Assembly (NCBI GenBank): GCA_025062295.1
Contig: JANXAJ010000001.1
Span: 36,167 to 100,166, forward strand
Direction: 5' to 3'
Origin: Bacteroidia bacterium
GTDB taxonomy: Bacteria > Bacteroidota > Bacteroidia > SpSt-205
DNA length: 64,000 nucleotides
The position numbers were made by a program, and so were the translations under genes. The notes beneath the pieces are model-generated. The model saw nothing but the letters and a program-made list of their open reading frames with translations, was not told the DNA's origin and searched no databases. Positions 2,378-64,000 of this stretch are shown here, piece by piece (the stretch's first letter is position 1; each line of letters opens with the position of its first letter).

Positions 2378-2410
2378 GGGGGGCTCTCTCACGAGCCCCC
2401 CATTTCATTG
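2378..2410 (+). terminator. Putative intrinsic terminator after the T9SS-CTD gene
   Basis: GC hairpin GGGGGGCTC-tctcac-GAGCCCCCC (9-bp stem) followed by ATTTCATTG. Confidence 0.45.
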
Positions 2411-2459
2411 AGTAGGGAAAGGTCTAAAATAAAGAGAGGAGCGCCGTACTTTTGCGAGA

Positions 2460-27514: not shown

Positions 27515-28529
27515 GGGGATAGGGTTGAGCATAGGATGGGCGCAGTTTGCAGGAGGCTGGAGCTATGATTTTCTCTGCACCCCTCCTTCAGCTCGTAGTG
27601 CCGGCTTGGGAGGAGTGGCATGGGGTGGCGATGTAGATCCAGGGGCTGTAGCTCAGAATCCTGCTCTCCTGCGCCCTGCTTATCACCGGTACTTTCATTT
27701 AGGGCTTCAGCCCTACTTAGCGGGAATTTTCATAAGCAGCTTCTCTTACTTTCATCATTGGCGAGAGGTCGGTACTTTCTGGAGTGGGCTGCTCTATCTC
27801 AACTATGGAGAATTTCAGCAAACAGATGAGATAGGGAATGCCCTTGGTACCTTTTCTGCTTATGAAGGTGCTTGGATGGGAGGGGCTGCTCGTCACTTTG
27901 GGCGCTGGCATGCAGGCATGAACCTCAAGCTGCCCTTCTCAGTGGTATCCCTGGATAGGTATCGCCGTTGGGGTCTGTGTGCCGATATCGCTATTTCATA
28001 TGAAGACACAGCTCGGGGATTATCCCTATCTCTACTTTTGCGGAATGTTGGTACAGAGCTCTATCGCCCAGGCGGTCGGGCTTTTGCCCAGCCTTTTCCA
28101 ACATCCCTTCAGATGACTGTAAGCTATCGGCTACCGCATGCTCCCTTTCGATTTCATGTAGGTGCTATTCACCTTCAGCGCTGGCGAATGGCGTATAACG
28201 ATCCTCTACAGCCTGTTCAGTATGACCTTTTAGGAAATCCTATTCCCTTGCCACCGCCGCCTTGGACGGAACATCTTTTTCGCCATGTGGTTGGTGGTGT
28301 AGAGCTTTTTCCAGAAGGGGTATTGCGAGCTCGTCTTGGCTATCATGTACAGCGCCGACGAGAATTGAATCCAATCGGCAGTTCGGCATTGGGTGGAGTT
28401 AGCTTCGGTCTGGGCATTGGCGGAAGACGCTGGCGGCTGGATTACGGGTATAGTTTGTTTTTTAGGCGGGCAGCTCTTCATAGCTTCTCTATTAGTGTAG
28501 AGCCTTTAGGAAGGTGGAAGAAGAACTGA
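27495..28529 (+). CDS. FadL/PorV-superfamily outer-membrane beta-barrel, PorQ-like (T9SS-associated)
   Basis: N-terminal hallmark ARSAGLGGVAWGGDVDPGAVAQNPALL after a signal peptide. ~340 aa, the PorQ size. Confidence 0.45.
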   Translation: MRRYWLKGIGLSIGWAQFAGGWSYDFLCTPPSARSAGLGGVAWGGDVDPGAVAQNPALLRPAYHRYFHLGLQPYLAGIFISSFSYFHHWREVGTFWSGLLYLNYGEFQQTDEIGNALGTFSAYEGAWMGGAARHFGRWHAGMNLKLPFSVVSLDRYRRWGLCADIAISYEDTARGLSLSLLLRNVGTELYRPGGRAFAQPFPTSLQMTVSYRLPHAPFRFHVGAIHLQRWRMAYNDPLQPVQYDLLGNPIPLPPPPWTEHLFRHVVGGVELFPEGVLRARLGYHVQRRRELNPIGSSALGGVSFGLGIGGRRWRLDYGYSLFFRRAALHSFSISVEPLGRWKKN

Positions 28530-29623
28530 TAGCTTTACTCACTCTCTTGCAGATGGAGGGATTAGGTGGGCGACAGATTCGTAAGCTGCGGCGGCAGTGG
28601 GGTAGTTTGGAAGAGCTCTGGAGTCCCTTCGCTTCCTCTACTCTACCTCCTTCCCTGCAAATGCGCCTTTCAGCCCTTAGTGAGCTTCGGAAACAAGCTG
28701 AAACTATCCTCTCCACCTGCGACAGGCTGGGAATTGCCGTTATACCTTACTATGATAACCGATTCCCTCCCCTCTTAGAGGAGATTCCCTCACCCCCTGC
28801 TGTACTTTATAAGAAAGGTCCTCATTCTCTCACAGAGCAGCCCCTTGTAGCGGTGGTCGGCACTCGTAAGCCCAGCGCTTATGGGATGAAAGCCACGGAG
28901 ACTTTCGTAGAGGCGCTGGTAGCAGCTGGGGTCGGAATTGTCAGTGGGCTGGCATATGGCATAGATGCTCATGCTCATCGGGTTACTTTAGAGAAAAAAG
29001 GCAAGACTATTGCAGTCTTGGCTCATGGGCTAGACCGAATATATCCCTCTATTCATCGTCGCTTAGCCGATGCAATTTTAGCTGAAGGTGCCTGGGTCAG
29101 TGAGTATCCACCGGGTACAAAGCTTCATCCCCTCCTTTTCCCTTACAGAAATCGGATTATCGGGGGCCTGGCTCATCTGACTTTGATTGTAGAGTCTCGT
29201 GAAAAGGGAGGAGCCCTATTTACAGCTCGTGCTGCTTTTGAAGCCAATCGACCCGTTTTTGCTGTACCAGGTTCTATTTTTTCGCCTGTGTCTCAGGGGC
29301 CTCACCTTCTCATTGCTGAACAGATTGCTCATATCGCTTCCTCTCCTACGGCTCTTATTGAGGAGCTCAAAGTTCAGACTCAACGTTTGCCCCTTCCCCC
29401 TTCATCTTCTGAAAAGCAGAAGGTCCCTCTTCATCCGCTTCATGCGGAGATATATGCACTGCTCCTACAGGGACAGAAGCATATAGATGAGATTTGTATT
29501 GCATTGGGACGCTCTGTAGTGGAGCTTATTCCCCATCTGCTTCAAATGGAAATAGAAGGATGGATTCAGCAAAAGCCAGGCGGCTTCATTTGTCGGGAAG
29601 CTCCTCCAGATGCCAAATTTTGA
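28514..29623 (+). CDS. dprA: DNA-processing protein DprA (Smf)
   Basis: Rossmann-like core VAVVGTRKPSAYG ... GIVSGLAYGIDAHAHR ... AVLAHGLDRIYP ... FAVPGSIFSP. 369 aa. Confidence 0.8.
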   Translation: MEEELIALLTLLQMEGLGGRQIRKLRRQWGSLEELWSPFASSTLPPSLQMRLSALSELRKQAETILSTCDRLGIAVIPYYDNRFPPLLEEIPSPPAVLYKKGPHSLTEQPLVAVVGTRKPSAYGMKATETFVEALVAAGVGIVSGLAYGIDAHAHRVTLEKKGKTIAVLAHGLDRIYPSIHRRLADAILAEGAWVSEYPPGTKLHPLLFPYRNRIIGGLAHLTLIVESREKGGALFTARAAFEANRPVFAVPGSIFSPVSQGPHLLIAEQIAHIASSPTALIEELKVQTQRLPLPPSSSEKQKVPLHPLHAEIYALLLQGQKHIDEICIALGRSVVELIPHLLQMEIEGWIQQKPGGFICREAPPDAKF

Positions 29624-30482
29624 TAAGTCCATCATCCCCTGCGGAAGCGAGAGTGTCTGTGCTTATCCAAAGCAGGGCATTCACACTGCGTAGGTGGCCT
29701 TGGAGAGTCAAGAGCTTTTCTCCCGTGAAAGGGTTCCATAGGTGGATGAGTTTGTCTCGTCCGCCTGTAGCTAAGATCTTCTCTGATGGATGCCAGGCAA
29801 TCGCGTTCAGTGCATAGGTATGAGCTGGTCTCTCAAGGAGGAGGATTAAGTCTTTATTCCAGATTCGGAGGAGGCCGGATTTTCCACCTGTAGCGATGAG
29901 TCCTTGACGAGGAGCGCTTTGGATAGTCATGAGGAAGGAAGGGTCAGCTTGAATGCGCCGCGTTACTTGGCGAGCCGACCGTTGGATCTCGTAAATCCAT
30001 CCATCGCGGCCTGCACAGAGAAAGTCAGTGCCTGTGGGTGAGAGGACAAAGCTTCGCAGGCCTGCTGGAGTGACGTGAATGCCTACAAAAGGTTGGCTCT
30101 GCTCTATGTCCCAGTATAGGAATTGCCCGTCTCTTCCTGAGCTCCATCCTTCAGCATCGGTCGGATGGGAGGCTAGACCAAATACACTACTTTGATGAGC
30201 GCGAATGGAGCGTCTAAGGACCTTGGAATCCAAATCCAGTACATATATGGTGCCTGAGCTCTCACCTACGTAGAGGTGATGAAGAGCTGGCACCCAGTGG
30301 AGGGCATATACTGCATTGGGTGTGCGTGCTAAGGCCCGAGCTTGCTTACCTGTAGTGCAGCGCCACTCTGCTATACAGCCGTCTGCCCCAGCCGAAAAGA
30401 GCACATGCTGCTCGTAATCACATGCTAGGGCATACACGGGCCCCGCATGTCCTGGCAAATCCCATTCTCCTATAAGACGCAC
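29586..30482 (-). CDS. WD40-repeat beta-propeller protein
   Basis: Seven WD-like repeats (GHAGPVYALA, SAGADGCIAEW, ATGGKSGLLRIWN, ATGGRDKLIHLWN, SAGDDGLIKIWH). Confidence 0.7.
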   Translation of the reverse strand: MRLIGEWDLPGHAGPVYALACDYEQHVLFSAGADGCIAEWRCTTGKQARALARTPNAVYALHWVPALHHLYVGESSGTIYVLDLDSKVLRRSIRAHQSSVFGLASHPTDAEGWSSGRDGQFLYWDIEQSQPFVGIHVTPAGLRSFVLSPTGTDFLCAGRDGWIYEIQRSARQVTRRIQADPSFLMTIQSAPRQGLIATGGKSGLLRIWNKDLILLLERPAHTYALNAIAWHPSEKILATGGRDKLIHLWNPFTGEKLLTLQGHLRSVNALLWISTDTLASAGDDGLIKIWHLEELPDK

Positions 30483-33040: not shown

Positions 33041-33979
33041 TCAATAGGGAATGTGGTTCAAGACCACCTGAATAAAGGTATCGGTTCGGAGGCCTTCAGC
33101 TAAGGCAGTGTAAGAAAAGATAATGCGATGACGTAAAACAGCTGGTGCCACAGCCTTGATATCTTCTGGAAGAACTATTGAGCGTTCATGAAGGAAAGCA
33201 CGGGCTCGGGCTGCCCGATGCAAAGCCAAAGCTGCTCTGGGGGAAGCTCCATACGCTATCTTCTCATCCCATCCTTTGATACCGAAGCGCTGAGGATGAC
33301 GAGTGGCTCGTACCAGCCGGACTATGTAGGTCTCTAAGCGAGAGGGCACCTCTATTTGATTCACTTCTGCTTGATAATCTAAGATTTTTTTGGGTGAAAG
33401 AAGGGGAGGGGGAGGGGGAGGATACTGCTGCCGAGCCCATCGCCGCAATATTTCCTCTTCCTCTGTTTCTGTAGGATAGCCTACTTCTACTCGGAAAAGA
33501 AATCTATCTATTTGTGCTTCTGGAAGTGCATAGGTGCCTTCTTGTTCAATCGGATTCTGCGTAGCCAGCACCCAGAAAGGTCGGGGCAAGGGATAGGTTT
33601 CTTCTCCTAAGGTAACCTGTCCTTCTTGCATGCATTCTAAGAGGGCGCTTTGAACTTTGGCAGGAGCCCGATTCACTTCATCCGCTAAGAGGACTTGTGT
33701 GAAGATAGGCCCCTTCCGAGTGGAGAATCGGCCTGAACCCTCATACACGAGGCCTCCTGTCAAGTCGGAAGGCAGCATATCGGGTGTAAATTGCACTCGT
33801 CTAAACTCCAGACCGGAGAGATGAGCTAAAGTGCTTGCCATGAGAGTTTTAGCCACGCCTGGAACGCCTTCTAATAGCACGTGTCCGCCAGCCATTAGAG
33901 CGGTCCATAGCTGCTCCAGAGGCTCTCGCTGCCCAATCACGATGCGCTGGGCTGCCCCTACAAGTTGGTCTAATAGCAC
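33041..33979 (-). CDS. MoxR-family AAA+ ATPase
   Basis: Walker A LLEGVPGVAKT, Walker B LLADEVNRA, sensor and Arg-finger regions. 312 aa. Confidence 0.8.
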   Translation of the reverse strand: MLLDQLVGAAQRIVIGQREPLEQLWTALMAGGHVLLEGVPGVAKTLMASTLAHLSGLEFRRVQFTPDMLPSDLTGGLVYEGSGRFSTRKGPIFTQVLLADEVNRAPAKVQSALLECMQEGQVTLGEETYPLPRPFWVLATQNPIEQEGTYALPEAQIDRFLFRVEVGYPTETEEEEILRRWARQQYPPPPPPLLSPKKILDYQAEVNQIEVPSRLETYIVRLVRATRHPQRFGIKGWDEKIAYGASPRAALALHRAARARAFLHERSIVLPEDIKAVAPAVLRHRIIFSYTALAEGLRTDTFIQVVLNHIPY

Positions 33980-34019
33980 TGGGCAAATATGTTTATTTTG
34001 CCATACTTTATTTTTTCAG

Positions 34020-41957: not shown

Positions 41958-44312
41958 GTGAGAGAGCGTCAAATCTGGGAATTTTTTTGTTTTTGTAGTG
42001 TGCGCGGGATCGTCCTTTTTGGATGGGGTGCTTTAGGAGCTCAGACCCTTTTTAGCGTAAGCGGCTATGTGAAAGATGCGGTAAATCGAGAGCCTTTATC
42101 GGGGGCAAAAGTATACGTCATAGAGCGAAATACGGGGGTAATAACTAATCCTTATGGTTACTATGCGCTCCGAGTGCCCCCTGGGCGATACCGGATCGTG
42201 GCTCAGTTTATGGGCTATCGGAGTGAGACTTTGACAGTAGCAGTCAAGGGCGACCTCAAGCAGGACTTTCTCCTTCAGGAAGAAGGGGTAGAATTGCGCA
42301 CAGTAGAAATCGTAGAGACTTACGAAAAGCAGCGGTTTGAAAGCGCAGCAATGAGCCAAAATCGCATAGATATTCAGCAACTGAAGAAGCTGCCAGCTTT
42401 CTTTGGAGAGGTGGACATCCTTCGTTCTCTTTCTTTCCTTCCTGGTGTGGCGACCGCTGGGGATGGAAGTGGTTCATTTTTTGTACGGGGAGGGTCTTTT
42501 GACCAGAATCTTATTCTTCTGGATGAAGCAGTGGTGTATAATCCTGGGCATTTAGGGGGCATTTTTGCTGCATTTAACTCTGATGCACTACAAGAGGCGA
42601 AGATTTACAAGGGATACATGCCGCCAGAGTATGGGGGTCGTCTCTCCTCTGTCCTCGATGTCAGACTAAGAGAAGGTTCAAGCCCTCGCTGGACAGCCGC
42701 TGGCGGAATCGGTCTCATCTCTTCTAGGCTCAATGTAGAAGGACCTTTGCTCAAGGATCGAGCAGGATTCCTTCTTACAGCTCGGCGCAGCTATGCTGAT
42801 CTTTTCCTTCTTTTTGCGAGGGACCCAGACCTTCGTAATACTGCTCTCTACTTTTACGATTTTACCACCAAGCTCAACTATCGCCTCAGCGACAAACACA
42901 GACTCTATCTCTCAGGCTATTTCGGACGAGATGTATTCCGTAATGTGTTTTTTGACTTCAACTGGGGCAATGCTACCACTACTCTTCGATGGAACTTCAT
43001 TCCATCGCCTAGACTTTTCATAAATACTCTGGTATTTTATAGCAAGTATGACTATGCTTTTCTAGTTGAGTCAGGTCGAAATCAAGCACGCTTTAGTTCG
43101 GGCATTGAAGACATAGGATGGCGGACGGATGGAGATTATTACCTTTCTGAAAAGATCAAGCTCCGCTTCGGCATGAGTCTGACTCGGCATACTTTTCTAC
43201 CTGGGCAACTCAAGCCTACCAGCGATACCTCTAATGTTCGTCCCTTCCGTGTCCCCTCTCTACGGGGAGTAGAAGCTGCGACATATATTCAGACCGATTA
43301 CAAGTTTGGAAGCCGATGGCTGATAGAAGGGGGAATGCGGTGGGCTGGATTTGGGCTTTTCGGACCAGCGACGCTGTATGCCTTTTCACCGGAACTAAGA
43401 GTTCGAGACACCCTTATCTATAACAGTGGAAATTTGATAGATGCATGGGGGGGGATAGAGCCTCGGGTAAGCATACGCTATGCTCTTTCTGAGCGATGGG
43501 CTCTCAAGGCTTCTTCTGGTCGCGTCCAGCAATTCCTTCATGTAGCTACTCTCTCCCCTGTGGGTCTTCCTACCGATATTTGGTGGCCCACGACTCTCAA
43601 TATTCGGCGGCAAGATGGCTACCAAATCGCTCTGGCTCTTCAAGGAACCCCTCGCTGGAAAGGACACGCATGGGATATCTCGTGGGAACTGTTCTACAGA
43701 GGAATGCAAAATGTCTTGGACTTTCGCTCTGGTACTGATATTTTTCTCAATCTTCAACTAGAGCGGGACCTCGTTCAAGGCCGTGCTTGGGCATATGGGG
43801 CGGAGTGGATGATTCAAAAGCTGACAGGTAAGCTCACAGGTTGGCTATCTTATACTTATAGTCGGAGCTTTCGTCTCATCCCCGCTATTAGTCCTAATCC
43901 CTTCCCAAATTATATAGATCGTCCGCATCAAGCCACGCTTGTGCTGCAGTATCCCCTCTCTCCCCGGTGGGACTTGGGAATTACTGGAATCTATGGTACA
44001 GGCCGTCCTATTACTCTCCCCGTGGCTAAGTATGTGTATGATGGACAGGTGATCGGCGTCTATAATCAGCGCAATAACCGTCGGATGCCCGACTATCACC
44101 GAGTGGATGTCTCCCTCACTTGGACGGCACCGCCAAGAGAAGGGAAGCGCTGGCAGTCAAGCTGGAACTTCTCAGTGTATAACGTCTATGGGCGGCGAAA
44201 TATGTGGGCTCTTCGTCTGCGTCAAGACGAAAATAATCCAGATCTCCAGCGGGCTTATAACTTTTACTTTTTCAGATGGGTGCCAGCTATCACCTATAAC
44301 TTCAAGTTCTGA
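41958..44312 (+). CDS. TonB-dependent outer-membrane receptor with N-terminal carboxypeptidase-regulatory-like domain
   Basis: CarbopepD_reg (GYVKDAVNREPLSGAKVYVIE...GYYALRVPPGRYRI), plug, 22-strand barrel. C-terminal ...ITYNFKF. Confidence 0.8.
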   Translation: MRERQIWEFFCFCSVRGIVLFGWGALGAQTLFSVSGYVKDAVNREPLSGAKVYVIERNTGVITNPYGYYALRVPPGRYRIVAQFMGYRSETLTVAVKGDLKQDFLLQEEGVELRTVEIVETYEKQRFESAAMSQNRIDIQQLKKLPAFFGEVDILRSLSFLPGVATAGDGSGSFFVRGGSFDQNLILLDEAVVYNPGHLGGIFAAFNSDALQEAKIYKGYMPPEYGGRLSSVLDVRLREGSSPRWTAAGGIGLISSRLNVEGPLLKDRAGFLLTARRSYADLFLLFARDPDLRNTALYFYDFTTKLNYRLSDKHRLYLSGYFGRDVFRNVFFDFNWGNATTTLRWNFIPSPRLFINTLVFYSKYDYAFLVESGRNQARFSSGIEDIGWRTDGDYYLSEKIKLRFGMSLTRHTFLPGQLKPTSDTSNVRPFRVPSLRGVEAATYIQTDYKFGSRWLIEGGMRWAGFGLFGPATLYAFSPELRVRDTLIYNSGNLIDAWGGIEPRVSIRYALSERWALKASSGRVQQFLHVATLSPVGLPTDIWWPTTLNIRRQDGYQIALALQGTPRWKGHAWDISWELFYRGMQNVLDFRSGTDIFLNLQLERDLVQGRAWAYGAEWMIQKLTGKLTGWLSYTYSRSFRLIPAISPNPFPNYIDRPHQATLVLQYPLSPRWDLGITGIYGTGRPITLPVAKYVYDGQVIGVYNQRNNRRMPDYHRVDVSLTWTAPPREGKRWQSSWNFSVYNVYGRRNMWALRLRQDENNPDLQRAYNFYFFRWVPAITYNFKF

Positions 44313-47985: not shown

Positions 47986-50844
47986 ATGAGATATCTCACC
48001 CCCTACCTTATCGGAGTCATCTTATGCGCTCAACAGCCAAATGGCCTTCTGGATACACTGACAGATTTAGTCCAGCATCGTGAATATCTGGTTCGCATGC
48101 GGGACAGCGTACCGTTAGCGACAAGTGTGAATCTTCCGATTTTCAGTGATACTGCTCAGGTAGAAATAGACCTTGGTTCCATACTACCAGGTCTTGGACG
48201 ACAGCGACTTCGGTTTGCTTATCCTGGAACCCAGTATTTCGTCTATCCTGATCAGCCTGATCCGTATGCGCTGCCGGTCATTTTCACAAGAACCCCCTAC
48301 AATAAGGGAGGGACTGAACTCAGCAAAGGGTACGCCCTTCTTGGATACGCTGGTATAGAGCAGGACATGCGAGGACGATATCGTTCATGGGGCGTTTATC
48401 TCCCTATGTATAGCGATAGCTGGGAAAAGACGGCATATGTCCAGCATATCAGTCCAAATGCCGGCCACCCGTTGGATATCACCCCAGATAAAAAAGCCAA
48501 CCTGCACGAGGATGGATGGGATTCATATCAATGGATTCTGAATGATCTGCGGTATGACCGCGATGGGGATGGGTCTGAAGAGTCTCTGCGATGTAATGGA
48601 AAGATCGGTATGTTTGGAGGCTCCGCGCTGGGCAATACCCAGTATCAGTTAGCGGCAGCTCATCGGATTGACCCTCAATCGCCGGGGCTCAAATGCTTGA
48701 TGCCTGTTGTCGCTTCCGCTGAATTCTATCATAGTGCAGGACATCACAATGGTGTCTACAGAGAACGACTTATAGACGGCTGGCTACGCGGGCAAGTGGA
48801 ATTCTATTCCCTCTGGACCGATGGACCAGCAAATCCCTACGACTCTATTCACACGGTGGCAGATTATGGTCCGAGAATCCAAAATCCGCTTCAAGCAGCT
48901 GAGGCTTGCATAGACTTCTGGACTGTCCAAGATGGGGCTCACTATCCAAACTCACCCGCTCGAGCTATCATGGATATGAGCCATGCAACTCTGGATGAAA
49001 ACGGCAATCCCCAGTGGCGAGGACCGCGAAGCCGATATGAAAATATTCAGGTACCCGTTTATAACCTAACAGGATGGTGGGATATCTTTATAGATGGGCA
49101 GATACAGACTTGGCAAAACTTAATGAAGCATTTACCCCCGTCTCTGAAGAAGTATCAGAAGCTCGTTATTGGACCTTGGGCCCATCAAACTATGGGTCAG
49201 CGGAGTACAGGAGATATGCGGATTTTGCCTGATGGACGTGATCATCGCTATCCACCCAACGTAACAGAGGAATTCAATGTCCCAGATATTTCGGAGCTTC
49301 GCTTGGAAACAGCTTCTGAATTACTTCAATCGGAAGTAGTAGGATGGTTTCGCTACTTTCTCGGCACGCCTACTTTTCAATTGCCGCCAGACACCGCTTG
49401 GCAAGTAGTCCGGGGAAGTATAGGGGATGTCTTCCTTCGTATCCCTGCAGATACTTTCCGAGCAGGGTTTTATGACTTTTTCAACTTTCTCAACGGCACG
49501 GCAGGCTTAGCAAATTTCCCTATAGAATTCAAGATAGGTGCGAGCGGAACCCCCCAGCGTCTCAATATTACGCTTCCTCCGCTCGGAACTTCCCTCTTTG
49601 GGGATACTACTCGTCAAGTGCTCTCCCCTCCTTCTTATGAGTTTGATGCTACGAAGCCAGGTGGTCGTCCGAATGTGCGATTCTATGTCGTGGGCCCTGT
49701 AGCTGATACTCTCAACCCAGCTGTGGGGAATTACTGGTATAAAGCTGACACTTTTCCTCTTCCTTCTTTGCCGACAGTGAGACTGTATCTTCATGGAGAT
49801 GGGCGGCTCTCTGAAATTCCGCCACAAACGGAAGAGCCTCCTCGCTCCTTCGTTGCAGACCCTGACGACCCCGTTCCTACCCATGGCGGACCGAATATGA
49901 TTGAATACACCCCTGATCGTTCCCGTCTGAGCCAAGGACAGATGGATTTCACTGATCCACTCTACCGAAATTTAGTGTTAGACCGCCCTGCTCGCTACGT
50001 CGTTGATGGTCAAAGCTACTCTGACCTTATCGCATATGTCTCTGATTACATTCCTGATTCCTTCTGCATTGCCGGGTTCCCCACAGCTCAGCTGTATGTT
50101 GCGCTGAGGGCTTTATGGGGTGCTTTCCCAGATTCCGTGAATGGAGATATCATCCTGCGAGTCTTAGATGTGTATCCAGATGGGCGTGAGTACTATGTAT
50201 TTGAAGGAGCCTGCAATGCAAGGGCTCGGGAGTATGCAGAAAGCTGGGCTGATGGCTCTGAAGACACCTCTAAGCCATGGTATAACTTAGCTGCTGATAG
50301 TATCTATAAGTGGCGCTTTCGGATGCTTCCGATTGCTTACTGCTGGGGCAAAGGGCATCGTATCAAGGTCCTCGTGAGTGCCACGAACTACCCCCGTTTT
50401 CAGCCATGTCCAAATGTCCCCCTCATGCCTTATGAATTCTATCGGCGGCGTCCCTTTGGTAATACCCCCTACACTTTTCGCGGGGTTGAAATGTATCCTC
50501 GACGAAACCTGCAAACCATTTATTCTGGCCCAGATAAGCTTTCCTTTATTGAATTTCCTGTCTTAGGAGGGCGCTTTGTTTCTCAGCTAGAGACCTATTC
50601 CTCACCTTATCCTCTCCAAACTTCCCTCTATCCCAATCCTGCCGACGAGGCTGCCTCTGTAGAAGTAAATCAGCCTGGCGTGTATGAGGTAGCTGTTTAT
50701 ACTCTGACAGGAGAGCGGATTTTCTTGGCTCACTTTTGTGGTAAGATTGTCCTTCCCGTTTCCGAGTGGTCGCCGGGTCTATATCTTGTTCGGGTGGAGA
50801 GTGGGGGGAAAACAGTTGGATACCATAAATTGGTCGTTCACTAA
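47986..50844 (+). CDS. CocE/NonD-family (peptidase S15, X-Pro dipeptidyl-peptidase-like) hydrolase with T9SS type-A C-terminal sorting domain
   Basis: FTRTPYNKGG...GYAGIEQDMRGRYRSWG core. C-terminal LYPNPADEAASVEVNQPGVYEVAVYTLTGE...GLYLVRVESGGKTVGYHKLVV CTD. Confidence 0.65.
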   Translation: MRYLTPYLIGVILCAQQPNGLLDTLTDLVQHREYLVRMRDSVPLATSVNLPIFSDTAQVEIDLGSILPGLGRQRLRFAYPGTQYFVYPDQPDPYALPVIFTRTPYNKGGTELSKGYALLGYAGIEQDMRGRYRSWGVYLPMYSDSWEKTAYVQHISPNAGHPLDITPDKKANLHEDGWDSYQWILNDLRYDRDGDGSEESLRCNGKIGMFGGSALGNTQYQLAAAHRIDPQSPGLKCLMPVVASAEFYHSAGHHNGVYRERLIDGWLRGQVEFYSLWTDGPANPYDSIHTVADYGPRIQNPLQAAEACIDFWTVQDGAHYPNSPARAIMDMSHATLDENGNPQWRGPRSRYENIQVPVYNLTGWWDIFIDGQIQTWQNLMKHLPPSLKKYQKLVIGPWAHQTMGQRSTGDMRILPDGRDHRYPPNVTEEFNVPDISELRLETASELLQSEVVGWFRYFLGTPTFQLPPDTAWQVVRGSIGDVFLRIPADTFRAGFYDFFNFLNGTAGLANFPIEFKIGASGTPQRLNITLPPLGTSLFGDTTRQVLSPPSYEFDATKPGGRPNVRFYVVGPVADTLNPAVGNYWYKADTFPLPSLPTVRLYLHGDGRLSEIPPQTEEPPRSFVADPDDPVPTHGGPNMIEYTPDRSRLSQGQMDFTDPLYRNLVLDRPARYVVDGQSYSDLIAYVSDYIPDSFCIAGFPTAQLYVALRALWGAFPDSVNGDIILRVLDVYPDGREYYVFEGACNARAREYAESWADGSEDTSKPWYNLAADSIYKWRFRMLPIAYCWGKGHRIKVLVSATNYPRFQPCPNVPLMPYEFYRRRPFGNTPYTFRGVEMYPRRNLQTIYSGPDKLSFIEFPVLGGRFVSQLETYSSPYPLQTSLYPNPADEAASVEVNQPGVYEVAVYTLTGERIFLAHFCGKIVLPVSEWSPGLYLVRVESGGKTVGYHKLVVH

Positions 50845-55898: not shown

Positions 55899-57011
55899 TT
55901 AGAGAGGATGTACTTCCACTTCAAGCAGGTGGCGGACTTCTCTCAGCTTCTTCTGAAGCTCTTTTTGAGTCTGGCTGAGGACGAGGATATGACCGAGCTT
56001 TCTGAAAGGAGTACTACGCCTCTTGCCGTAGAGATGGATTGAGACCCCTGGGATGCGGAGTAGAGCCGAAAGAGAAGGAAAAGAAGGAACTCCATGCTGA
56101 CCCGCTGGTCCTAAGATATTCACAAGCCCTCCATATGCATGCAGGCGAGTCTCACCAAGGGGAAGGTCTAAGAGAGCTCTCCAGTGCTGCTCAAACTGGC
56201 TTGTCCAGCAGGCTTTGAGCGTTACGTGACCTGTATTATGAGGACGAGGGGCAGACTCATTGATAAGCCACTGCCCTTCAGTAGTATAGAAAAATTCCAC
56301 TGTCAGAAGGCCTACTACCCCTAAGGCTTCTATCAGTTCCATCGCTATCTCTTGGGCTTTTGCTATTTCTGGGGGAGGGAGTTCAGCGGGAATTTGGAGA
56401 TATTCTACAATGTGAGCTTCCTCATGAAATACAGACTCGACTGGAGGGAAAGCTCGGACTTCACCCGATACAGAGCGAGCGGCAATTACACTCACCTCTT
56501 TCAGAATGGAGACTTTCTCTTCTAATAGGCTAGGCTCTTCCCGAAGTTCGGCCGGGCTCGGGACGGTATAGACCCCTCGTCCGTCATATCCGCCTTGCAA
56601 AGCCTTTTGGATGAGCGGGAAGGTCAGCTCAATCGGTTCGCCGGGTTTCCAAAGCTGGAATCGCGGTCCTGGAAATCCATGGGCCGCATACCAGAGCCGC
56701 TGCTTGCCTTTATTCTGAATAAGCGCTAAAATTTCCGGGGCTGGATGGACGCTTACTCCTCGCTCCCGAGCTCGCATTAGCCCCTCTACCGAAATAGCCT
56801 CCATTTCTATAGTGAGAATCTCCAGACCTTCACTGAAGCGCTGGATAGTTTCTGCTTCTCTCACAGAGCCGATCACAAATTCATGAGCTATCCCTGCGCA
56901 AGGGGAGTCTGGCGCGCTATCTAAGACTCGGATGCGCAAATCTAGGTCTATCCCCGCTTGAATGAGCATGCGTCCAAGCTGTCCCCCTCCGATAATACCA
57001 ACTCTACGCAT
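55899..57011 (-). CDS. purK: N5-carboxyaminoimidazole ribonucleotide synthase
   Basis: MRRVGIIGGGQLGRML... ATP-grasp. 370 aa. Confidence 0.85.
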   Translation of the reverse strand: MRRVGIIGGGQLGRMLIQAGIDLDLRIRVLDSAPDSPCAGIAHEFVIGSVREAETIQRFSEGLEILTIEMEAISVEGLMRARERGVSVHPAPEILALIQNKGKQRLWYAAHGFPGPRFQLWKPGEPIELTFPLIQKALQGGYDGRGVYTVPSPAELREEPSLLEEKVSILKEVSVIAARSVSGEVRAFPPVESVFHEEAHIVEYLQIPAELPPPEIAKAQEIAMELIEALGVVGLLTVEFFYTTEGQWLINESAPRPHNTGHVTLKACWTSQFEQHWRALLDLPLGETRLHAYGGLVNILGPAGQHGVPSFPSLSALLRIPGVSIHLYGKRRSTPFRKLGHILVLSQTQKELQKKLREVRHLLEVEVHPL

Positions 57012-57038: not shown

Positions 57039-57368
57039 GTGCCCCTCTTCCTCTTTCTAATCCTTATTCTTTGGCTGAACACCGCTTCAGCTCAAGTGGA
57101 TACTCTATTTGTTCAAAGCAAAAATATCGTCTGCCAAACTTGTCGGCGAACAATTATTCGAGGGCTCTCTACTCGGAAAGGCATCAGATTTGTAGAGGTG
57201 GATGTGCCTCAAAAGACAATTATGGTTCTTTATCGGCGTGAGAAGACACAGCCTGAACAGATTCGGAAAGCCATCACTCAGCTGGGATATGATGCAGATA
57301 CCCTTCCGAGGGACAGCCAAGCGTATGAGCGCCTTCCTGCGTGCTGTAAGCTCTCAAAGCCTCATTAG
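57039..57368 (+). CDS. Secreted heavy-metal-associated (HMA) domain protein
   Basis: Beta-alpha-beta-beta-alpha-beta pattern with a CQTC metal motif (VQSKNIVCQTCRRTI). Hydrophobic leader VPLFLFLILILWLNTASAQ. GTG start is uncertain; the longer ORF overlaps purK. Confidence 0.5.
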   Translation: MPLFLFLILILWLNTASAQVDTLFVQSKNIVCQTCRRTIIRGLSTRKGIRFVEVDVPQKTIMVLYRREKTQPEQIRKAITQLGYDADTLPRDSQAYERLPACCKLSKPH

Positions 57369-57436
57369 GTAAGCTCTCCTTTGACACAATTGCGGCTTTT
57401 ATCCTACAATAATGATGAACCGATATTTTTGACGAA

Positions 57437-59512
57437 GTGGGACGAAAGTGGTGGCTTCTGCTGGGATGGATATGGGCTCAGGTCCTCCCTGATACTTTGG
57501 ATGCAGGGCGGTGGGAGCTTCTCTTAGAAGATCAGGCAGAGCAGGCACCAGAAGGCATAGATTGGACTCAAGTCTCAGATATTTATGAAACTTTTGTTCG
57601 TCAGCCAGTCGACCTCAATCGGGCCTCAGATGAAATTCTTCTAAAGGTGCCAGGTATGACCTCGGCGCTTCTGAAAGCCCTACGAGCCCATCAGGCGCGC
57701 TACGGTCCTCTTCTTTCCATATACGAGCTGCAAGCGGTTCCTGGCTTTACGGAGTATGTCTATCAGACCATCCGTCCATATGTAACAGTCAGACCAGCGA
57801 CAGAACTTGACATTGGGGAGGGGCCGACCCAGCTTCCGAGTTTTTCTCAAGTTCGAGAAGTGGCTCGTTTGACAGTCATTCAGCGGGTCCAACGCACATG
57901 GCGGGCTTTCTATGAAGCTGGAACATGGAGAGCTGAAACCCTTCGCAGTGCTCTGGGTGACCCTTATCGCCTTTACAATCGGATTTGGCTTCAAGCAAAT
58001 CCCTATCTTTCTGTAGCGCTGATTTCTGAGAAAGACCCGTTTGAGGAACTGCGCTGGAGCCCAGAGAGGCGATACTATGGATATGACTACATCAGCGGCC
58101 ACATTGCAATAGGACAGGTAGGGAACCTTCGCCGCCTCATTCTTGGAGATTATATTCTTCAGGTTGGGCAAGGGCTGGTTTTTGCGCGCGGACTGGGCTT
58201 TGGGAAAGGAGGAGACCCGATTATTAGTCTCAAGCAGCCTTCCTATGGGCTTGTGCCTTACACCTCTGTCAATGAATACCAATTTTGGCGTGGAGCCGCC
58301 ACTACAGTGCGTCTCTCAGATAGGCTCAGTATAACGGGCATGGCGTCTCGTCTACGTCAAGACGGAACTTTGGCTACCTCTGCTGATACCACTGAGGAGG
58401 AAGGGCAGTTTGTGCAAACCCTTCTCACCTCTGGACTTCATCGCACACCCAGCGAGCTTGCTCGGCGAGGCACCCTCCTGCATGAAGCAGCAGGGGGCAT
58501 CCTTACTTGGCAGAAGCGCTGGAATAGCGCTGGGGCTACCTTTCTGTATCAGCGTTTTGCTCCTCCTCTTGACTTAGGTGGTAGGCAAGCTTATCGTTAC
58601 TTTGGATTCGCAGGGAGTGAAAATACTGTCGGAAGTCTTTTTTGGGATTTTACGATACGAAATCTCAATTTTTTCGGTGAGGCAGCCCAAAGTCGATCAG
58701 GTGGACGGGCTCTAACCGCATCTGTCATTACTCCTCTTCATACAACGCTGGATATTGCTGTTCAGGTTCGGCATTTTGATCCCGACTTTCACTCATTTTA
58801 TGCTTATACTTTTGCCGAGCGTCCTTTCTCTATTCAAAATGAGCAGGGAGTATATCTCGGCGTACGGGTTCGTCCTCACTCTCGCTGGGAAGTTACTGCC
58901 TTTCATGACTTGTATCGATTTCCATGGTATCGGTACCGAGCGAATAGCCCCACAGAAGGGCATGAAAGTCTGATACAGGTAACCTACACTATCCGTCGCC
59001 GTCTCCAAGCATATGTCCGTGTGAGACATGAAACAAAGCCCTACAATATCAGCTCGGCGTATGCTGAGGGTCTCTTTTATCAGCTTGTGCCTCATGTGAG
59101 AACCTACATTAGAGCACATACTTTGTATGAAATCAATCCTTTCTGGCGCTATCAGGCTCGGATAGAAGTGAGCCGGTACAGTCGAGAAACCAGAAGTGGC
59201 GGCTACCTTTTTTATCAAGATGTGCGGTGGCAGCCTGACTTTCGCTGGAGTGTGAGCCTGCGCTGGGTGATCTATCGGATCAGTAGCTATGATGCGCGGA
59301 TTTATACCTATGAGGCGATGCCTCCGACGACTTTCTTTATTCCAGGATATTATGGGGAGGGTCAACGAGCCTATATTCTAATTCGGACGCGATTGGGACG
59401 GCAATGGACGATATGGATGCGAGTAGGACAGAACCTCTTTCTCCCCCCTCAGTCGCGCCAGTTTAGGCGAAGCATAGAGGCGCTTCTTCAAGTTCGGTTT
59501 CAGATAGGGTAG
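57437..59512 (+). CDS. Helix-hairpin-helix (ComEA-like) domain fused to a large predicted outer-membrane beta-barrel
   Basis: Signal peptide. VDLNRASDEILLKVPGMTSALLKALRAHQARYGPLLSIYELQAVPGFTEYVYQTIRPYVTV is ComEA-like. Then ~550 aa with alternating aromatic beta-strand pattern. C-terminal ...VRFQIG. Confidence 0.55.
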   Translation: MGRKWWLLLGWIWAQVLPDTLDAGRWELLLEDQAEQAPEGIDWTQVSDIYETFVRQPVDLNRASDEILLKVPGMTSALLKALRAHQARYGPLLSIYELQAVPGFTEYVYQTIRPYVTVRPATELDIGEGPTQLPSFSQVREVARLTVIQRVQRTWRAFYEAGTWRAETLRSALGDPYRLYNRIWLQANPYLSVALISEKDPFEELRWSPERRYYGYDYISGHIAIGQVGNLRRLILGDYILQVGQGLVFARGLGFGKGGDPIISLKQPSYGLVPYTSVNEYQFWRGAATTVRLSDRLSITGMASRLRQDGTLATSADTTEEEGQFVQTLLTSGLHRTPSELARRGTLLHEAAGGILTWQKRWNSAGATFLYQRFAPPLDLGGRQAYRYFGFAGSENTVGSLFWDFTIRNLNFFGEAAQSRSGGRALTASVITPLHTTLDIAVQVRHFDPDFHSFYAYTFAERPFSIQNEQGVYLGVRVRPHSRWEVTAFHDLYRFPWYRYRANSPTEGHESLIQVTYTIRRRLQAYVRVRHETKPYNISSAYAEGLFYQLVPHVRTYIRAHTLYEINPFWRYQARIEVSRYSRETRSGGYLFYQDVRWQPDFRWSVSLRWVIYRISSYDARIYTYEAMPPTTFFIPGYYGEGQRAYILIRTRLGRQWTIWMRVGQNLFLPPQSRQFRRSIEALLQVRFQIG

Positions 59513-59623: not shown

Positions 59624-60073
59624 TCACCATAAGCGATGAAGCCCATCCCCTGCTCCTGCAAAAAAAAGGCCCCAAAGTACCATTGAGATAGTCATCCGCA
59701 GTGTAATCAGATTTCTGGGGGTTCCGAAGGCAAGGGCGATGGCTGTACCGATGGGAGGGCTCAAGATGGGGGGTGTCAGTAAAGCTATGCCCCATAAGCC
59801 ATACTTTTCCCATAGTCGGGCCCAACGCTGAGAGGGAAAAGAAGGAGGGGGACGCCGGCGCCAGCGAGCAATCCAAGTACGGATGGTATCACCCAGATAG
59901 GTAAAAACTATTACTCCTGTAACTCCACCACTTGTCGTGACCGCAAGCTGTTCCCAAAAGCTCAGCCCCATAAGGACGCTCATACCTACACCTACCATGA
60001 ACTTAAAACCGCTCATGAGGAAGATGGGAAGGTATCGGAGGAGGGAGAGGCTTTCACTGACGAAGAGGTCCAT
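59624..60073 (-). CDS. Small integral membrane protein (YqaA/DedA-like?)
   Basis: Four TM segments, PPILSPPIGTAIALAFG proline/glycine motif. Overlaps upp by 20 nt. Confidence 0.35.
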   Translation of the reverse strand: MDLFVSESLSLLRYLPIFLMSGFKFMVGVGMSVLMGLSFWEQLAVTTSGGVTGVIVFTYLGDTIRTWIARWRRRPPPSFPSQRWARLWEKYGLWGIALLTPPILSPPIGTAIALAFGTPRNLITLRMTISMVLWGLFFAGAGDGLHRLW

Positions 60074-60704
60074 AGGCTAAGTCGCCTGCATCACCTAAGC
60101 CAGGAACAATATAAGCTCGGGCAGTGAGCTCTTTGTCAATCGCCCCTACATATAAGTGAGCATGAGGAAGTGCCGCTTGAACTGTTTTCACGCCTAGCTC
60201 CGACGCAATCAAAGCCATAATGAAGAGGGTCTGCGGGCGTCCCCTTAGCAGGAGTGCTTCATGAGAGACGATAATACTGCGTCCCGTAGCCAGCATCGGG
60301 TCCATCAAAACTACATGCCGCTTTTCCAGAGAGGGGATTGCCAGATAATCTACCTGAACCTGCATTTCTCTGTTCGTGAGTTCGGTGCGGTAAGCAGCGA
60401 CGAAACCTACGTCGGCAAAATCAAAAGCCTCCATTGCTCCCTCTAAAAAGGCGTTACCTGCTCGTAGAATGCTCACTAAAACAGGGGGCTCTGCTAACAC
60501 CTGTACCTGAGCCTGACCTAAGGGAGTAGTTACTTGAGCCTGCATGTACGGCAAAGACCGACTGATTTCATAAGCCAAAAGGAATCCGGCTCGCTTGAGA
60601 TTCCATCGGAAGCGATGACGGTCTTTTTGCAGCTTTTGATTGCGCAGTTCAGCAAGTATCTGAGTGAAGAGAGAAGGGGTTTCACTTAGCACCCGCAGTG
60701 GCAT
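60054..60704 (-). CDS. upp: Uracil phosphoribosyltransferase
   Basis: PRPP-binding VVLMDPMLATGRS, uracil-binding YIVPGLGDAGD. 216 aa. Confidence 0.85.
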   Translation of the reverse strand: MPLRVLSETPSLFTQILAELRNQKLQKDRHRFRWNLKRAGFLLAYEISRSLPYMQAQVTTPLGQAQVQVLAEPPVLVSILRAGNAFLEGAMEAFDFADVGFVAAYRTELTNREMQVQVDYLAIPSLEKRHVVLMDPMLATGRSIIVSHEALLLRGRPQTLFIMALIASELGVKTVQAALPHAHLYVGAIDKELTARAYIVPGLGDAGDLAYGPLRQ

Positions 60705-60713: not shown

Positions 60714-61580
60714 TTACCACACTCTCCACGCTGAGACAAAATAGCGACATTCCCACCTGCCGCCGTATTGTCTAAAGAAGCGCTCAACGCCAGGAAGAAT
60801 GGAGCCGCAAAAATCAAAGACTTTGCCTGAGTTTTGAGCAAAGAGGATGGCTTCGTAGAGTAATCGGGTCATGGCTTGAGGGGTGCGGCGTTGAGCCCCA
60901 GCCATGTACCATACGCGGTCTTTGCCTATGAGCAGGAGACAAACCGCCTCTAATGGCTCTCCAATCCCGAGAACTTGCCAGAGCCCTTCTATCTGGATGA
61001 GCTGTCTGAGTTGAGCAGCAAGCTGAGAAGACACACCAGGTGGGCGGTGAGCAGCCCACCACGTGAAGCCTTCGGCTGGAGCAAGAGAACGAAGGGGGAA
61101 GTGATGAGCCTGACGGACTTTTCGCAAAAGTTCTTGACTCGGCACAAAAGCACCAGGTTCTATGATAAAGCTACCACTCCCCCGAACTTGGAGGTGTCGT
61201 AGGGGAGGAAGATAGCTCCACTCAGGCGAAAGATGTCCCGCCACATAGCTGAGATGTCTCCTTCTAACCCATGCTGCTATAGCTGAAAGCACATGTGAAA
61301 TGAGTCGGTATCGTTCAGGTTTTGGTTCTGGCAGAGGTGCATGCAGACGAAAGGCACTCCAAGGCGAGCCGAGCGGCTGGCGATACAGGTGCAGAGGTCC
61401 TATTTGCCGATAGGCTAAGGGCAGACCTGCTATAAGCGTACCATTCGTCTCTATGAGGAGAGCCCCCCATGAAAGTCCTAATCGGCTCCACCACTCCCAT
61501 TCACTAAAGGGTTCTGAAGCATAAGGGAGCTGAGGCCAGTAAGCCTGAGCCTCAGAGGAAGAGACCCATTCTGCTCTCAC
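60714..61580 (-). CDS. Hypothetical protein (possibly a FemAB/GNAT-fold acyltransferase)
   Basis: 288 aa, mixed alpha/beta with Trp-rich N-terminus. No confident motif. Confidence 0.3.
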   Translation of the reverse strand: MRAEWVSSSEAQAYWPQLPYASEPFSEWEWWSRLGLSWGALLIETNGTLIAGLPLAYRQIGPLHLYRQPLGSPWSAFRLHAPLPEPKPERYRLISHVLSAIAAWVRRRHLSYVAGHLSPEWSYLPPLRHLQVRGSGSFIIEPGAFVPSQELLRKVRQAHHFPLRSLAPAEGFTWWAAHRPPGVSSQLAAQLRQLIQIEGLWQVLGIGEPLEAVCLLLIGKDRVWYMAGAQRRTPQAMTRLLYEAILFAQNSGKVFDFCGSILPGVERFFRQYGGRWECRYFVSAWRVW

Positions 61581-64000
61581 GAAGAGGGAGGTTTGAGGAG
61601 GGGAGGGGAAGTACCAAAGCTGCCCACTGCTAAAGTCAGCCGCAAAGTCTGTCTCTCTCCTCCAACATGAAGTCCAAAGCTAAGCGATGGTCCAATGCCC
61701 GTCTTTCGAAAGCGTAGATTCACCTCTGTCAGATAGAGGCTTCCCTCTAAATGCCACAGGCGAGCGGAGGCTGTGTAGAGGGCTCTTACCGTCACCACCT
61801 CTTTCCAACTTGTTCTTTTGAGAAGGGGGAAGAGTCGCAGGATTGCCCCTTCTGGTAGCCAAGAGAGGAAAAGGAAGCTAGCCCACCTGCCCATACTTTC
61901 ATAAGGTGTTCGCTCGGTAAACTGAAAAGCACCCCGATGAAAAAGGAGAGCTGTAGCAGGGATATACAGACCGTCAGCCCAGGGGGGCTGGAAACTTTGC
62001 CAGGCTCCACCCATAAAGAGTTCTACTCTCCCAAAGGGACTCACCGATAGCCGAGGGCCTCCCCCTACTGACAGAGAAGTCAGCAGTCTTTCTTTGATAC
62101 ATGCGGTTTCTACTCCTCCTTGAGCAAACCAAGTGAGTACTCTGTCTGGGGAAAGGAATCGAGTGCTCCGAGGAGTGGTGAAGGTTCGGGTGCCCGGACG
62201 CCATTCTATCCACAGGCGTCCTCGCAGTGCGGAATAAATAGGCTCTCGCTGCGGATTTTCAGCCCTTTCATCCCACCTGAGCTGAAGCTGAGCTTCAACT
62301 GTCCGATGGAGATATCGTCTTATTCCCACCTGAAGGAAGGGAGACGGGTAGCCTTGCCAACCCGTTTCTCGTCCAACGAGACGATATACGACATTCCAGA
62401 AAAAAGGAATTTGAACAAACTCTGTAGGCTCTTGGATCTGTATCCCGCCTGCAAGCTGCACCCTCCATAGGGGATAAGTCGTTGTTTGGCGCTCTATGCG
62501 GCATAAAGGAGCTATGCGTTGCCACCCCAGCCCATACCGGAGAAGGGCTGAGGTCTCCCAGATGATATTGTCCCTGCGTTGCTTCCATATAAGGTAAAGC
62601 GGCAAAGTCCATCCCTCTAAGGGCGTGTAGGAAATCCATTCTGCTTGGAGACCCATCTCTCTGTATCCCAAGGGGAAGGTCTGCCTGTGAGACCAGCGTA
62701 TGCCTGCAGGGGAGACTCTAAAGCTCCTTCCTCGTTGACGAGAAGCGGTGTCTTGCTCAGCAATCATCGTATCATGACGAGCAAGATATAAGAGCTGCTG
62801 CGTGTCTAAAGGGGCCTGTCGTATGCTATCCCAGAAGGCTGAGGAGCCTTTCTCAGCTTGAGGAAGGATACGTACCATCTCCCCAAAATCTAGTCGCTCC
62901 ACTTGTAGCGTTTCAGCACGGACTGAGGATGAGGAACGAGGGGGAGGAGTTCCTTGCTTGCGCCGAGGCTTTTTTGAAGAGGAGAGCACAAGCCTGTCAT
63001 ACCTCCGATAAGCAGCATATCCTTCTCCAATCAGGGCTATCTCTGCCAAGGGAAGAGAGACCCGAAAGTGCCCACGAAAACTGATCTCTCCAATCTGATA
63101 GCATCCCCCTAACGAGACGTAGGTTACACGAACTCCCAAACTATCTGCATATCGGATGGGCCTTCCTTTCCGCACTTGCCACTCTAGTCCTACCAAGGCG
63201 TAGCTTTCATCTGCCAGTAGAATATATCCTTCAACACAGGGAGAAGAGCGGCTTTGCGGTTCTATAGCGATCTTATAGAAGAGGTTATCCTCTTCCCAGT
63301 AGCTGCCAATAAGTCTGTAGCGGTAATAAAGAGGGGCATCTTTTGCTAAGGGCAGCACAAAGGGAGTTTCTGTTATCTCCTCCAGTGAGAGACGCTCACC
63401 ATATGGATCAAACCCCTGAAATATCCAGCCGCCAAGGAAGCTGTAGCTCCGAGTTCCTACAAAGCGAGAACGAAGTATTTCCTCTCGGTAATTGTCTGGC
63501 GCCACAAAGTAGATGTGAGAAAAAGTCTCACTCATCAGAAGTACATCTTGACGACCTATCGGCTGTTTGATGAGTTTTTGAAGAAGGGGACTAGGCGGCT
63601 CTAACCATCTTGCCGTAAAAAGGGTATAGGTTTCTACTCGGAAGGCGGGGAGGCAGCCTCTGTTCTGGGCTTTAGCAGCAATGGCTTTTCGGACTAAAAT
63701 CTCGGCAGGGTCTTTTCCGCCTTCTGTAATGATTACCCCGCCTAATCGTACCTCTTGGGGATAGAGTACAAAGGTGTAGAGAGAGGAGGCTTGACCACGA
63801 TATAGGGTGTCTCGGCGAGGACGATACCCTAAGTGCTTCAATTCTATAATGAGAGTCTCTGCTGCTACACTAAGGGTGAAACGACCCTCTGCATTTGAGA
63901 CAGTTTGAAAACCAGTTTGAGGCAATCGTACAATCGTATGGCTGAGGGGCTCTCCATCAGGAGTGCGAACTTCGCCTTGGAGAGAAAAGATTTGTGCCCA
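61577..64000 (-). CDS. DUF5686-like protein with N-terminal carboxypeptidase-regulatory-like domain; 5' end runs off the window
   Basis: The frame stays open upstream of the track start to position 64000 (…IFSLQGEVRTPDGEPLSHTIVRLPQTGFQTVSNAEGRFTL = CarbopepD_reg). EILVRKAIAAKAQN block as in DUF5686 proteins. Confidence 0.5.
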   Translation of the reverse strand, partial: WAQIFSLQGEVRTPDGEPLSHTIVRLPQTGFQTVSNAEGRFTLSVAAETLIIELKHLGYRPRRDTLYRGQASSLYTFVLYPQEVRLGGVIITEGGKDPAEILVRKAIAAKAQNRGCLPAFRVETYTLFTARWLEPPSPLLQKLIKQPIGRQDVLLMSETFSHIYFVAPDNYREEILRSRFVGTRSYSFLGGWIFQGFDPYGERLSLEEITETPFVLPLAKDAPLYYRYRLIGSYWEEDNLFYKIAIEPQSRSSPCVEGYILLADESYALVGLEWQVRKGRPIRYADSLGVRVTYVSLGGCYQIGEISFRGHFRVSLPLAEIALIGEGYAAYRRYDRLVLSSSKKPRRKQGTPPPRSSSSVRAETLQVERLDFGEMVRILPQAEKGSSAFWDSIRQAPLDTQQLLYLARHDTMIAEQDTASRQRGRSFRVSPAGIRWSHRQTFPLGYREMGLQAEWISYTPLEGWTLPLYLIWKQRRDNIIWETSALLRYGLGWQRIAPLCRIERQTTTYPLWRVQLAGGIQIQEPTEFVQIPFFWNVVYRLVGRETGWQGYPSPFLQVGIRRYLHRTVEAQLQLRWDERAENPQREPIYSALRGRLWIEWRPGTRTFTTPRSTRFLSPDRVLTWFAQGGVETACIKERLLTSLSVGGGPRLSVSPFGRVELFMGGAWQSFQPPWADGLYIPATALLFHRGAFQFTERTPYESMGRWASFLFLSWLPEGAILRLFPLLKRTSWKEVVTVRALYTASARLWHLEGSLYLTEVNLRFRKTGIGPSLSFGLHVGGERQTLRLTLAVGSFGTSPPLLKPPSS

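Follow-up and report, generated by a model that had tools for sequence, protein, structure and literature searches.

A helix-hairpin-helix module joined to a large predicted outer-membrane barrel in a widespread Bacteroidota family, most often encoded behind a PorV/FadL-fold barrel

It is not established by which route Bacteroidota bring DNA across their outer membrane, and the one genetic screen is that of Riemerella anatipestifer, in which a helix-hairpin-helix (HhH) protein (RA0C_RS02645) and an outer-membrane barrel with a CarboxypepD_reg domain (RA0C_RS04915) were found to be required for DNA uptake; the transformation system of this species was described without similarity to the well-known machinery (PMC8459023). 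For the HhH protein ComEA of Vibrio cholerae, K63 and the hairpin residue Gly60 are required for DNA binding and uptake: the G60V and G60E substitutions and changes of K63 abolish uptake (PMC3879209). In two Bacteroidota machines, a FadL-fold barrel accompanies a larger barrel: BamG contacts the BamA barrel, and PorV, which is one chain of the T9SS (type IX secretion system) translocon in PDB entry 6h3i, is a substrate-binding and shuttle protein of that system (PMC12611786, PMC12578637). Here, we examined a 64-kb stretch of DNA (64,000 nucleotides (nt) of contig JANXAJ010000001.1; hereafter, the window) from a metagenome-assembled genome (MAG) named "Bacteroidia bacterium". One of its genes encodes a protein of 691 amino acids (aa) that carries an HhH module in front of a large predicted outer-membrane barrel, and the family of this protein is the subject of the present analysis.

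The Riemerella proteins likewise come from Bacteroidota, carry HhH domains or a large outer-membrane barrel, and are genetically needed for DNA uptake. By their descriptions, however, both are set apart from the 691-aa protein: RA0C_RS02645 is periplasmic and has three HhH domains (the annotated one at 236-301) with no barrel mentioned, and RA0C_RS04915, with its CarboxypepD_reg domain, has a different architecture. The layout of the 691-aa protein and its gene is as follows.

57437..59512, + strand: gene, with its stop codon, for the outer-membrane protein of HhH module and barrel; GTG start and 691 aa in the list of open reading frames (ORFs)
57437..57478, + strand: signal peptide MGRKWWLLLGWIWA, with cleavage predicted before the invariant Gln15
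57482..57601, + strand: acidic N-terminal segment, aa 16-55, with two helices in the model (23-36 and 44-55)
57602..57787, + strand: (HhH)2 domain (aa 56-117; HHH_3/ComEA type), whose hairpins are degenerate and read PGMT and PGFT, not G-h-G
57788..57865, + strand: linker, aa 118-143; its predicted local distance difference test score (pLDDT) is below 50 at 121-129, and residues 136-142 form a short helix
57866..59509, + strand: predicted beta-barrel (aa 144-691) of about 24-26 strands; its long loops are highly conserved, and its interior is estimated to be Arg-rich

A separate gene call on the public contig gave this gene and the small gene preceding it as well, and the 691-aa product is NCBI MCS7296676.1. 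Two antisense ORFs (57680-58282 and 58793-59365) lie wholly within this conserved + strand gene and were taken as shadow ORFs. Gln15 is invariant in the 59-sequence family alignment, and the same-clade relatives read ...A/Q[VI]LPDT (the slash marks the cleavage site). The same A/Q leader end occurs in the product of the preceding gene; substrates of the Bacteroidota signal peptidase I favor Gln at +1, and both leaders appear consistent with cleavage by this enzyme.

The 691-aa protein was found to belong, as an ordinary member, to a Bacteroidota family that is very large and uncharacterised. A word-indexed search gave more than 650 homologues of 690-790 aa; among the 120 matches listed, the query coverage exceeded 90% in most, the identity was 31-75%, and the whole protein from signal peptide to barrel was included. 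A profile search gave 4,965 cluster representatives (clustered at 50% identity) at E ≤ 1e-30 and 27,293 at E ≤ 1e-3, the latter set taking in HhH-only matches; 148 of the best 150 representatives were full length. Because the family numbers 4,965 cluster representatives at the stricter threshold, its architecture is far beyond chance. In a scan of one genome per species, at least 582 species carried the family. All of the 80 titles among the matches listed were those of Bacteroidota or unclassified MAGs, the carriers listed including Algoriphagus, Belliella, Hymenobacter, Pontibacter, Thermonema, Flavobacteriales MAGs, and Bacteroidales MAGs. A literature search found no paper on the HhH-plus-barrel architecture. 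The family is real and well conserved, and the literature searched does not describe it.

The gene order in and around the family members was examined in 80 related loci together with the window, from which 990 ORFs were clustered. Among the 71 loci with room upstream, 51 carry one and the same gene (a cluster of about 275 aa) directly upstream of the barrel gene on the same strand. In 44 of these 51 loci, the spacing of the two genes is −25 to +10 nt, and its mode is −4 (ATGA overlap). In three Pontibacter loci (L055, L057, and L074), an opposite-strand Na+/H+ exchanger gene splits the pair, and both orientations are kept. The partner is predicted to be a barrel of about 270 aa and 14 strands with the PorV/FadL fold (AlphaFold2 model, pLDDT 93). 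It has no Pfam match; with the NCBIfam models, it reaches E ~1e-17 for PorV_fam yet stays below the cutoff, remains far under the equivalog cutoffs of PorV and PorQ, and matches BamG negligibly (E 0.006). Its homologues are labelled "hypothetical" or "PorV/PorQ family protein" in the databases. This gene, directly upstream in most genomes, is the true conserved partner, and a previous interpretation of the window made from its letters alone (the sequence-only reading) had overlooked it.

The pair is kept in only a part of the clade to which the window belongs (60-75% identity): it is present in L005, L006, L009, and L082, and it is not in L002, L003, L004, L007, L008, L010, and L032. A hidden Markov model of the partner, run with filters off against all six frames of the window, showed the partner to be absent there, the sole match being the ORF at 27495-28529, which is PorQ. 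Among 20 close partner homologues looked up, none has an accession close to MCS7296676.1 or derives from sample SRR15826899, and the MAG of the window, in which no partner was found, may be incomplete. In the close relative MAG SKW77, contig JAOAHZ010000005.1 carries the barrel gene and contig JAOAHZ010000009.1 carries a partner homologue; the partner can therefore be retained unlinked. The window locus is an ordinary, partner-less member of the family. In three loci with an unlinked partner (L085:3756-4565, L086:3699-4508, and L087:3699-4508), the next gene overlaps that of the partner by 13 nt and encodes a secreted protein of 269 aa; this product matched neither Pfam nor NCBIfam families, resembles neither the barrel nor the partner nor any part of the window, and was set aside.

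Because a PorV-fold gene is coupled upstream of the barrel gene, a two-barrel complex can be argued for, and the two known combinations provide the comparison. SprA-PorV (6h3i) is also a large barrel with a PorV/FadL-fold barrel; the partner here has about 270 aa against the 345 aa of PorV, and it lies below the PorV_fam cutoff. For SprA itself, a barrel of 36 strands and about 2,400 aa with no HhH module is reported. In BamA-BamG (9n2d, 9hj3, and 9hjm), the large barrel BamA is an Omp85 protein, whereas the large barrel here has no Omp85/POTRA match.

The AlphaFold2 model of the 691-aa protein, built from the 59-sequence alignment, has a mean pLDDT of 87.4 and a predicted template modeling score of 0.85. 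The HhH helices occupy 65-115 in it, the linker is of low confidence at 121-129, and 25 long and two short beta elements follow at 144-690, in which short turns (1-4 residues) switch with long ones (9-28 residues). This pattern is consistent with a barrel of about 26 strands (safe range, 24-26) whose N- and C-termini would both be periplasmic. The sequence-only reading had described a signal peptide, an HhH module, and a C-terminal barrel, and had proposed a structure prediction for the barrel; the model, together with the HHH_3 match given below, bears out this layout. In the Pfam scan of the 691-aa protein, HHH_3 was the sole family above cutoff, and no POTRA/Omp85, Plug, or TonB-box match was found. 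TonB-dependent transporters, by comparison, are recognized by a Plug, a TonB box, and a 22-strand TonB_dep_Rec barrel, which this protein does not present. No solved homologue of the large barrel was found: the 26-strand single-chain barrels MtrB (6r2q_B) and LptD (5iv8_C) gave TM-scores of 0.41-0.43 with 7-9% identity, a generic barrel similarity without evidence of homology.

Three other features of the barrel were found among the family members. One is that the C-terminal residue is aromatic in 37 of the 59 members (Phe in 35), as is usual for the barrel-assembly signal; unlike these members, the clade of the window ends in ...VR[YF]Q[IL]x. Another is that the long loops FARGLGFGKG, GLVPYTSVNE, and SGLHRTPSEL are among the best-conserved parts of the protein, which suggests that these loops, presumably extracellular, fold into the barrel. 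The last is that the strand positions estimated to face the lumen have a median net charge of +10 and hold nine invariant Arg and seven invariant acidic residues, the positions having been split by family-averaged hydrophobicity as an estimate without coordinates. The acidic N-terminal segment has the opposite character: its median net charge is −9 (range, −2 to −15; 59 members), and E31, D32, and D42 are near-invariant. This segment may act as a mimic of DNA, as a tail for autoinhibition, or as a plug in the cationic lumen.

The HhH module matches Pfam HHH_3 (PF12836) on residues 56-117 with 35.2 bits against the gathering score of 27 (E 1.3e-8). When the family profile was compared with the PDB, the best sequence matches were EEPD1 (1.4e-10), ComEA (1.3e-7), and Tex (1.5e-5), the ComEA chains being 8dss (1.3e-7) and 8dfk (2.4e-6). 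The module has in common with ComEA (V. cholerae; PDB 8dss, 8dfk, and 2duy) that it is an exported HHH_3-type (HhH)2 domain with an LN.A cap and a G-P-[FL]...[ED]-L core. ComEA, however, is small and soluble or anchored in the inner membrane, whereas the module here precedes an outer-membrane barrel of about 550 aa in one polypeptide and has the acidic segment added on its N-terminal side. The comE model TIGR01259 gave only 25.8 bits on the 691-aa protein against a cutoff of 152.35. Of all 10-mers of the protein, SIYELQAVPG is the most conserved, and it is located inside the module. The net charge of the domain is uninformative on DNA binding, the family median being −1 and that of a bona fide ComEA domain in the PDB being −2.

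From these results, we tentatively favor, at somewhat less than even odds, a two-barrel outer-membrane complex in which the HhH module serves as a periplasmic handle and the large barrel as a gated conduit for a polyanion. The large barrel would form one half of the complex and, as judged from gene order and fold, the PorV/FadL-fold barrel the other half, docked in the way known for PorV with the SprA translocon and for BamG with BamA. The HhH module should be periplasmic, because it is modelled on a flexible linker immediately before the first strand; the surface location once assigned to it is therefore disfavored by the model. The barrel would conduct a polyanionic polymer under gating, and the HhH module would grip either this cargo or a periplasmic partner. 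DNA would be the leading candidate for the cargo because of the ancestry of the module.

Several observations weigh against this reading, and most of them bear on DNA. The first concerns the hairpins, which have the forms P-G-[MLF]-[TNS] (Gly in 46 of 59 members) and P-G-F-[TSDN] (Gly in 55 of 59): the second Gly of the G-h-G signature is found in none of the 59 members in either hairpin. The Gly-hairpin signature on which the sequence-only reading had staked its proposal is thus retained by one half. The second is that the columns corresponding to K62 and K63 of V. cholerae ComEA (77 and 78) are hydrophobic: column 77 is I, L, Q, or T, and column 78 is Leu in 45 of 59 members and Lys in 2. 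As far as the alignment tells, the fold lineage of the module is ComEA-like, and the known DNA-contact residues are lost; of the "clear ComEA-type" DNA-binding module previously claimed, the HHH_3/ComEA lineage stands and the DNA-binding residues do not. Because these contact residues are lost, any DNA binding would need another surface, and in the databases, the label "ComEA family DNA-binding protein" depends on a single domain without them. The third is that the Riemerella proteins are others than the HhH-barrel family, in a screen that covered 3,000 mutants only (PMC8459023). The fourth is that neither competence genes nor genes of DNA metabolism recur in the neighborhood of the family, as judged from the 990 clustered neighbor ORFs and Pfam scans of the recurrent ones. 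In addition, the contact between the large barrel and the PorV-like barrel is inferred only, and the lumen charge derives from strand alternation and not from coordinates. In the window, an unrelated gene, for an HMA-domain protein, takes the place of the partner.

DNA is the most appealing candidate for the substrate, on weakened evidence, with protein docking almost as likely. The latter explanation holds that the HhH module is a protein-docking domain, as in GspK and PsbU, and that the two-barrel complex serves envelope biogenesis or protein secretion by a logic like that of the T9SS or the β-barrel assembly machinery (BAM), with no DNA involved; we regard it as a serious contender, though one that would still be wrong in most cases. 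The degenerate hairpins and the lost lysine pair count in its favor; GspK T2SSK_1st and other non-DNA HhH-like modules have the same hairpin form, P-G-hydrophobic-polar without the second Gly, and the T2SSK_1st model (the first domain of GspK) is near threshold on residues 85-120 (25.0 bits against 26.2). The HHH_3 match, however, is stronger and above threshold, and there is no pseudopilin context. The conservation of SIYELQAVPG exceeds the need of non-specific backbone binding, but the best sequence matches of the module bind nucleic acid, and PsbU is not among the PDB matches. The precedents PorV and BamG both belong to protein-handling machines, the genome has a T9SS, and an Omp85/POTRA gene is located just upstream of the pair in Cyclobacteriaceae; nevertheless, no T9SS or BAM gene adjoins consistently, and the partner scores below the PorV_fam and the PorV/PorQ equivalog cutoffs, as described above. 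If the function of the family does not concern DNA, it would be a third case of a large barrel with a FadL-fold accessory barrel after SprA-PorV and BamA-BamG, which is of interest for envelope biology.

A more specific form of the two-barrel complex would be a pilus-independent DNA translocon of Bacteroidota, in which the HhH-barrel and its PorV-like partner pass double-stranded DNA through the Arg-lined barrel of about 26 strands, with the HhH module as a ratchet at the exit and a hand-over to ComEC. The family is an obvious candidate for the outer-membrane step, because a ComEA-lineage module is located on a very large barrel, a PorV-like barrel is encoded in the same operon, and conservation is phylum-wide. 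If true, this explanation would fill the outer-membrane step of DNA uptake in Bacteroidota. We consider it doubtful.

Still less probable is a solute channel for small anions (phosphate, nucleotides, or oligonucleotides), in which the acidic segment and the HhH module would form a plug in the cationic lumen. The estimate of an Arg-rich lumen and the family-wide acidic segment agree with such a channel, and purK, purE, upp, and folC-like genes adjoin in several lineages (purK and upp in the window). However, about 26 strands make a barrel much larger than the specific porins known so far, the low confidence of the linker at 121-129 suggests that the domain stands free and is not a packed plug, neither a Plug nor a TonB box was matched, and the neighboring metabolic genes vary by lineage and are housekeeping.

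The remaining explanation is that of the sequence-only reading, which paired the barrel gene with the gene preceding it in the window and linked both with competence through dprA. The features concerned are the following.

57039..57368, + strand: gene for a secreted HMA (CxxC) metal-binding protein, 109 aa from a GTG start; outside the conserved system
57369..57436, + strand: spacer of 68 nt with promoter-like TTGACA-18-TACAAT at 57381-57410 and TATTTTTG at 57424-57431 (pattern matches)
28514..29623, + strand: dprA (TIGR00732, 222 bits against a cutoff of 191)
27495-28529, + strand: T9SS gene porQ (NF033711, 238.8 bits against a cutoff of 220)

The description of the small protein was confirmed: the ORFs, the Pfam match, and the spacer coordinates all agree with an HMA protein with a leader and a CQTC motif encoded 68 nt upstream of the 691-aa gene. 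The Pfam HMA match (PF00403) has 38.4 bits against a cutoff of 24.8 (E 1.7e-9) and includes the motif NIVCQTC; an alternative TTG start at 56958 would give 136 aa. The NCBIfam MerP and CopZ models all stay below cutoff (28-34 bits against 62-92), and no P-type ATPase or mer gene was found among the scanned ORFs. A tblastn search of the 80 related loci (within 8 kb on either side of the homologue) found no HMA gene, the best E value being 9.5, and the HMA ORF is a singleton in the clustering of the 990 ORFs. The spacer carries a sigma-70-type match of 11/12 and a motif of the form TAnnTTTG, which is the −7 consensus of Bacteroidota; no terminator-like site was seen in the scan.

It is very improbable that the HMA and HhH-barrel proteins are a co-transcribed pair forming a surface DNA-binding or uptake part of a competence machinery linked with dprA: the genes do share a strand with 68 nt and no terminator-like site between them, the HHH_3 domain is real, and dprA is in the window, but the PorV-like gene fills the upstream slot in most genomes and no HMA gene does in the 80 loci, the spacer has promoter-like elements of its own, the module is modelled on the periplasmic side, and dprA is 28 kb away in a neighborhood of porQ, ispH, and cmk. 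The adjacency of the two genes is a local accident and not a functional pair, so that the HMA neighbor is not to be counted in the system in annotation; at this locus, co-transcription of the two genes may nonetheless occur. As for dprA, its presence and position were verified, whereas the link with the barrel gene was not borne out, since no competence gene recurs near the family.

In the window, downstream of cmk and ispH, the 3′ end of porQ extends 16 nt into the start of dprA, which places a gene for a secretion-system barrel in translational adjacency to one for a recombination mediator. A gene for a 298-aa bacterial WD40 beta-propeller at 29586-30482 (− strand) is convergent with dprA and overlaps its 3′ end. 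Two genes for T9SS cargo proteins were also found, a 952-aa CHU_C sorting-domain protein at 33831-36689 (+ strand) and an S15 X-Pro dipeptidyl-peptidase with a Por_Secre_tail at 47986-50844 (+ strand). It is from porQ and these two cargo genes that the genome is taken to have a T9SS.

The recurrent neighbors of the family are housekeeping genes, namely those for Lgt, M3 and M24 peptidases, an AI-2E transporter, a TPR protein, NAPRTase, RND, and the Na+/H+ exchanger. Another neighbor deserves description. At 41958-44312 (+ strand), 13 kb from the HhH-barrel gene, the window has a TonB-dependent-like barrel gene with a CarboxypepD_reg domain and a weak Plug; it shares the CarboxypepD_reg barrel type with the essential transformation barrel of Riemerella, the likeness being by domain label alone. 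In several distant lineages, its full-length orthologues (36-39% identity) occur at most four genes from the barrel gene, namely in L037:2604-5246, L046:11682-14090, L064:11788-14160, and L073:4371-6776, and a paralogue is located directly upstream of the barrel gene in L010/L032:5710-8004. The order in L082 is the TonB-dependent-like gene (1222-3534; 81% identical to that of the window), DUF423, the partner, and the barrel. The TonB-dependent-like gene is thus two genes upstream in L082 and 13 kb away in the window, the lineage of which is evidently rearranged. The linkage with this gene is a lead and not a result.

Nucleotide-metabolism genes flank family members of distant lineages: purK and upp are at 55899-57011 (− strand) and 60054-60704 (− strand) in the window, and purK-purE is directly upstream of the pair in Flavobacteriales MAGs (L066-L068 and L076). 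This adjacency may be old synteny or chance. At 61577-63925 (− strand), the window also encodes a DUF5686 protein with a weak CarboxypepD_reg-like N-terminus, probably an uncharacterised Bacteroidota outer-membrane protein; the public gene call gives 808 aa, which places its start upstream of the listed TTG. Finally, in Cyclobacteriaceae (the Algoriphagus and Belliella loci L039-L061, L071, L075, L077, and L078), the Omp85/POTRA gene (about 485 aa) is directly upstream of the pair and a gene for a DUF4953 Met-zincin (about 810 aa) is directly downstream, with all of the genes on one strand.

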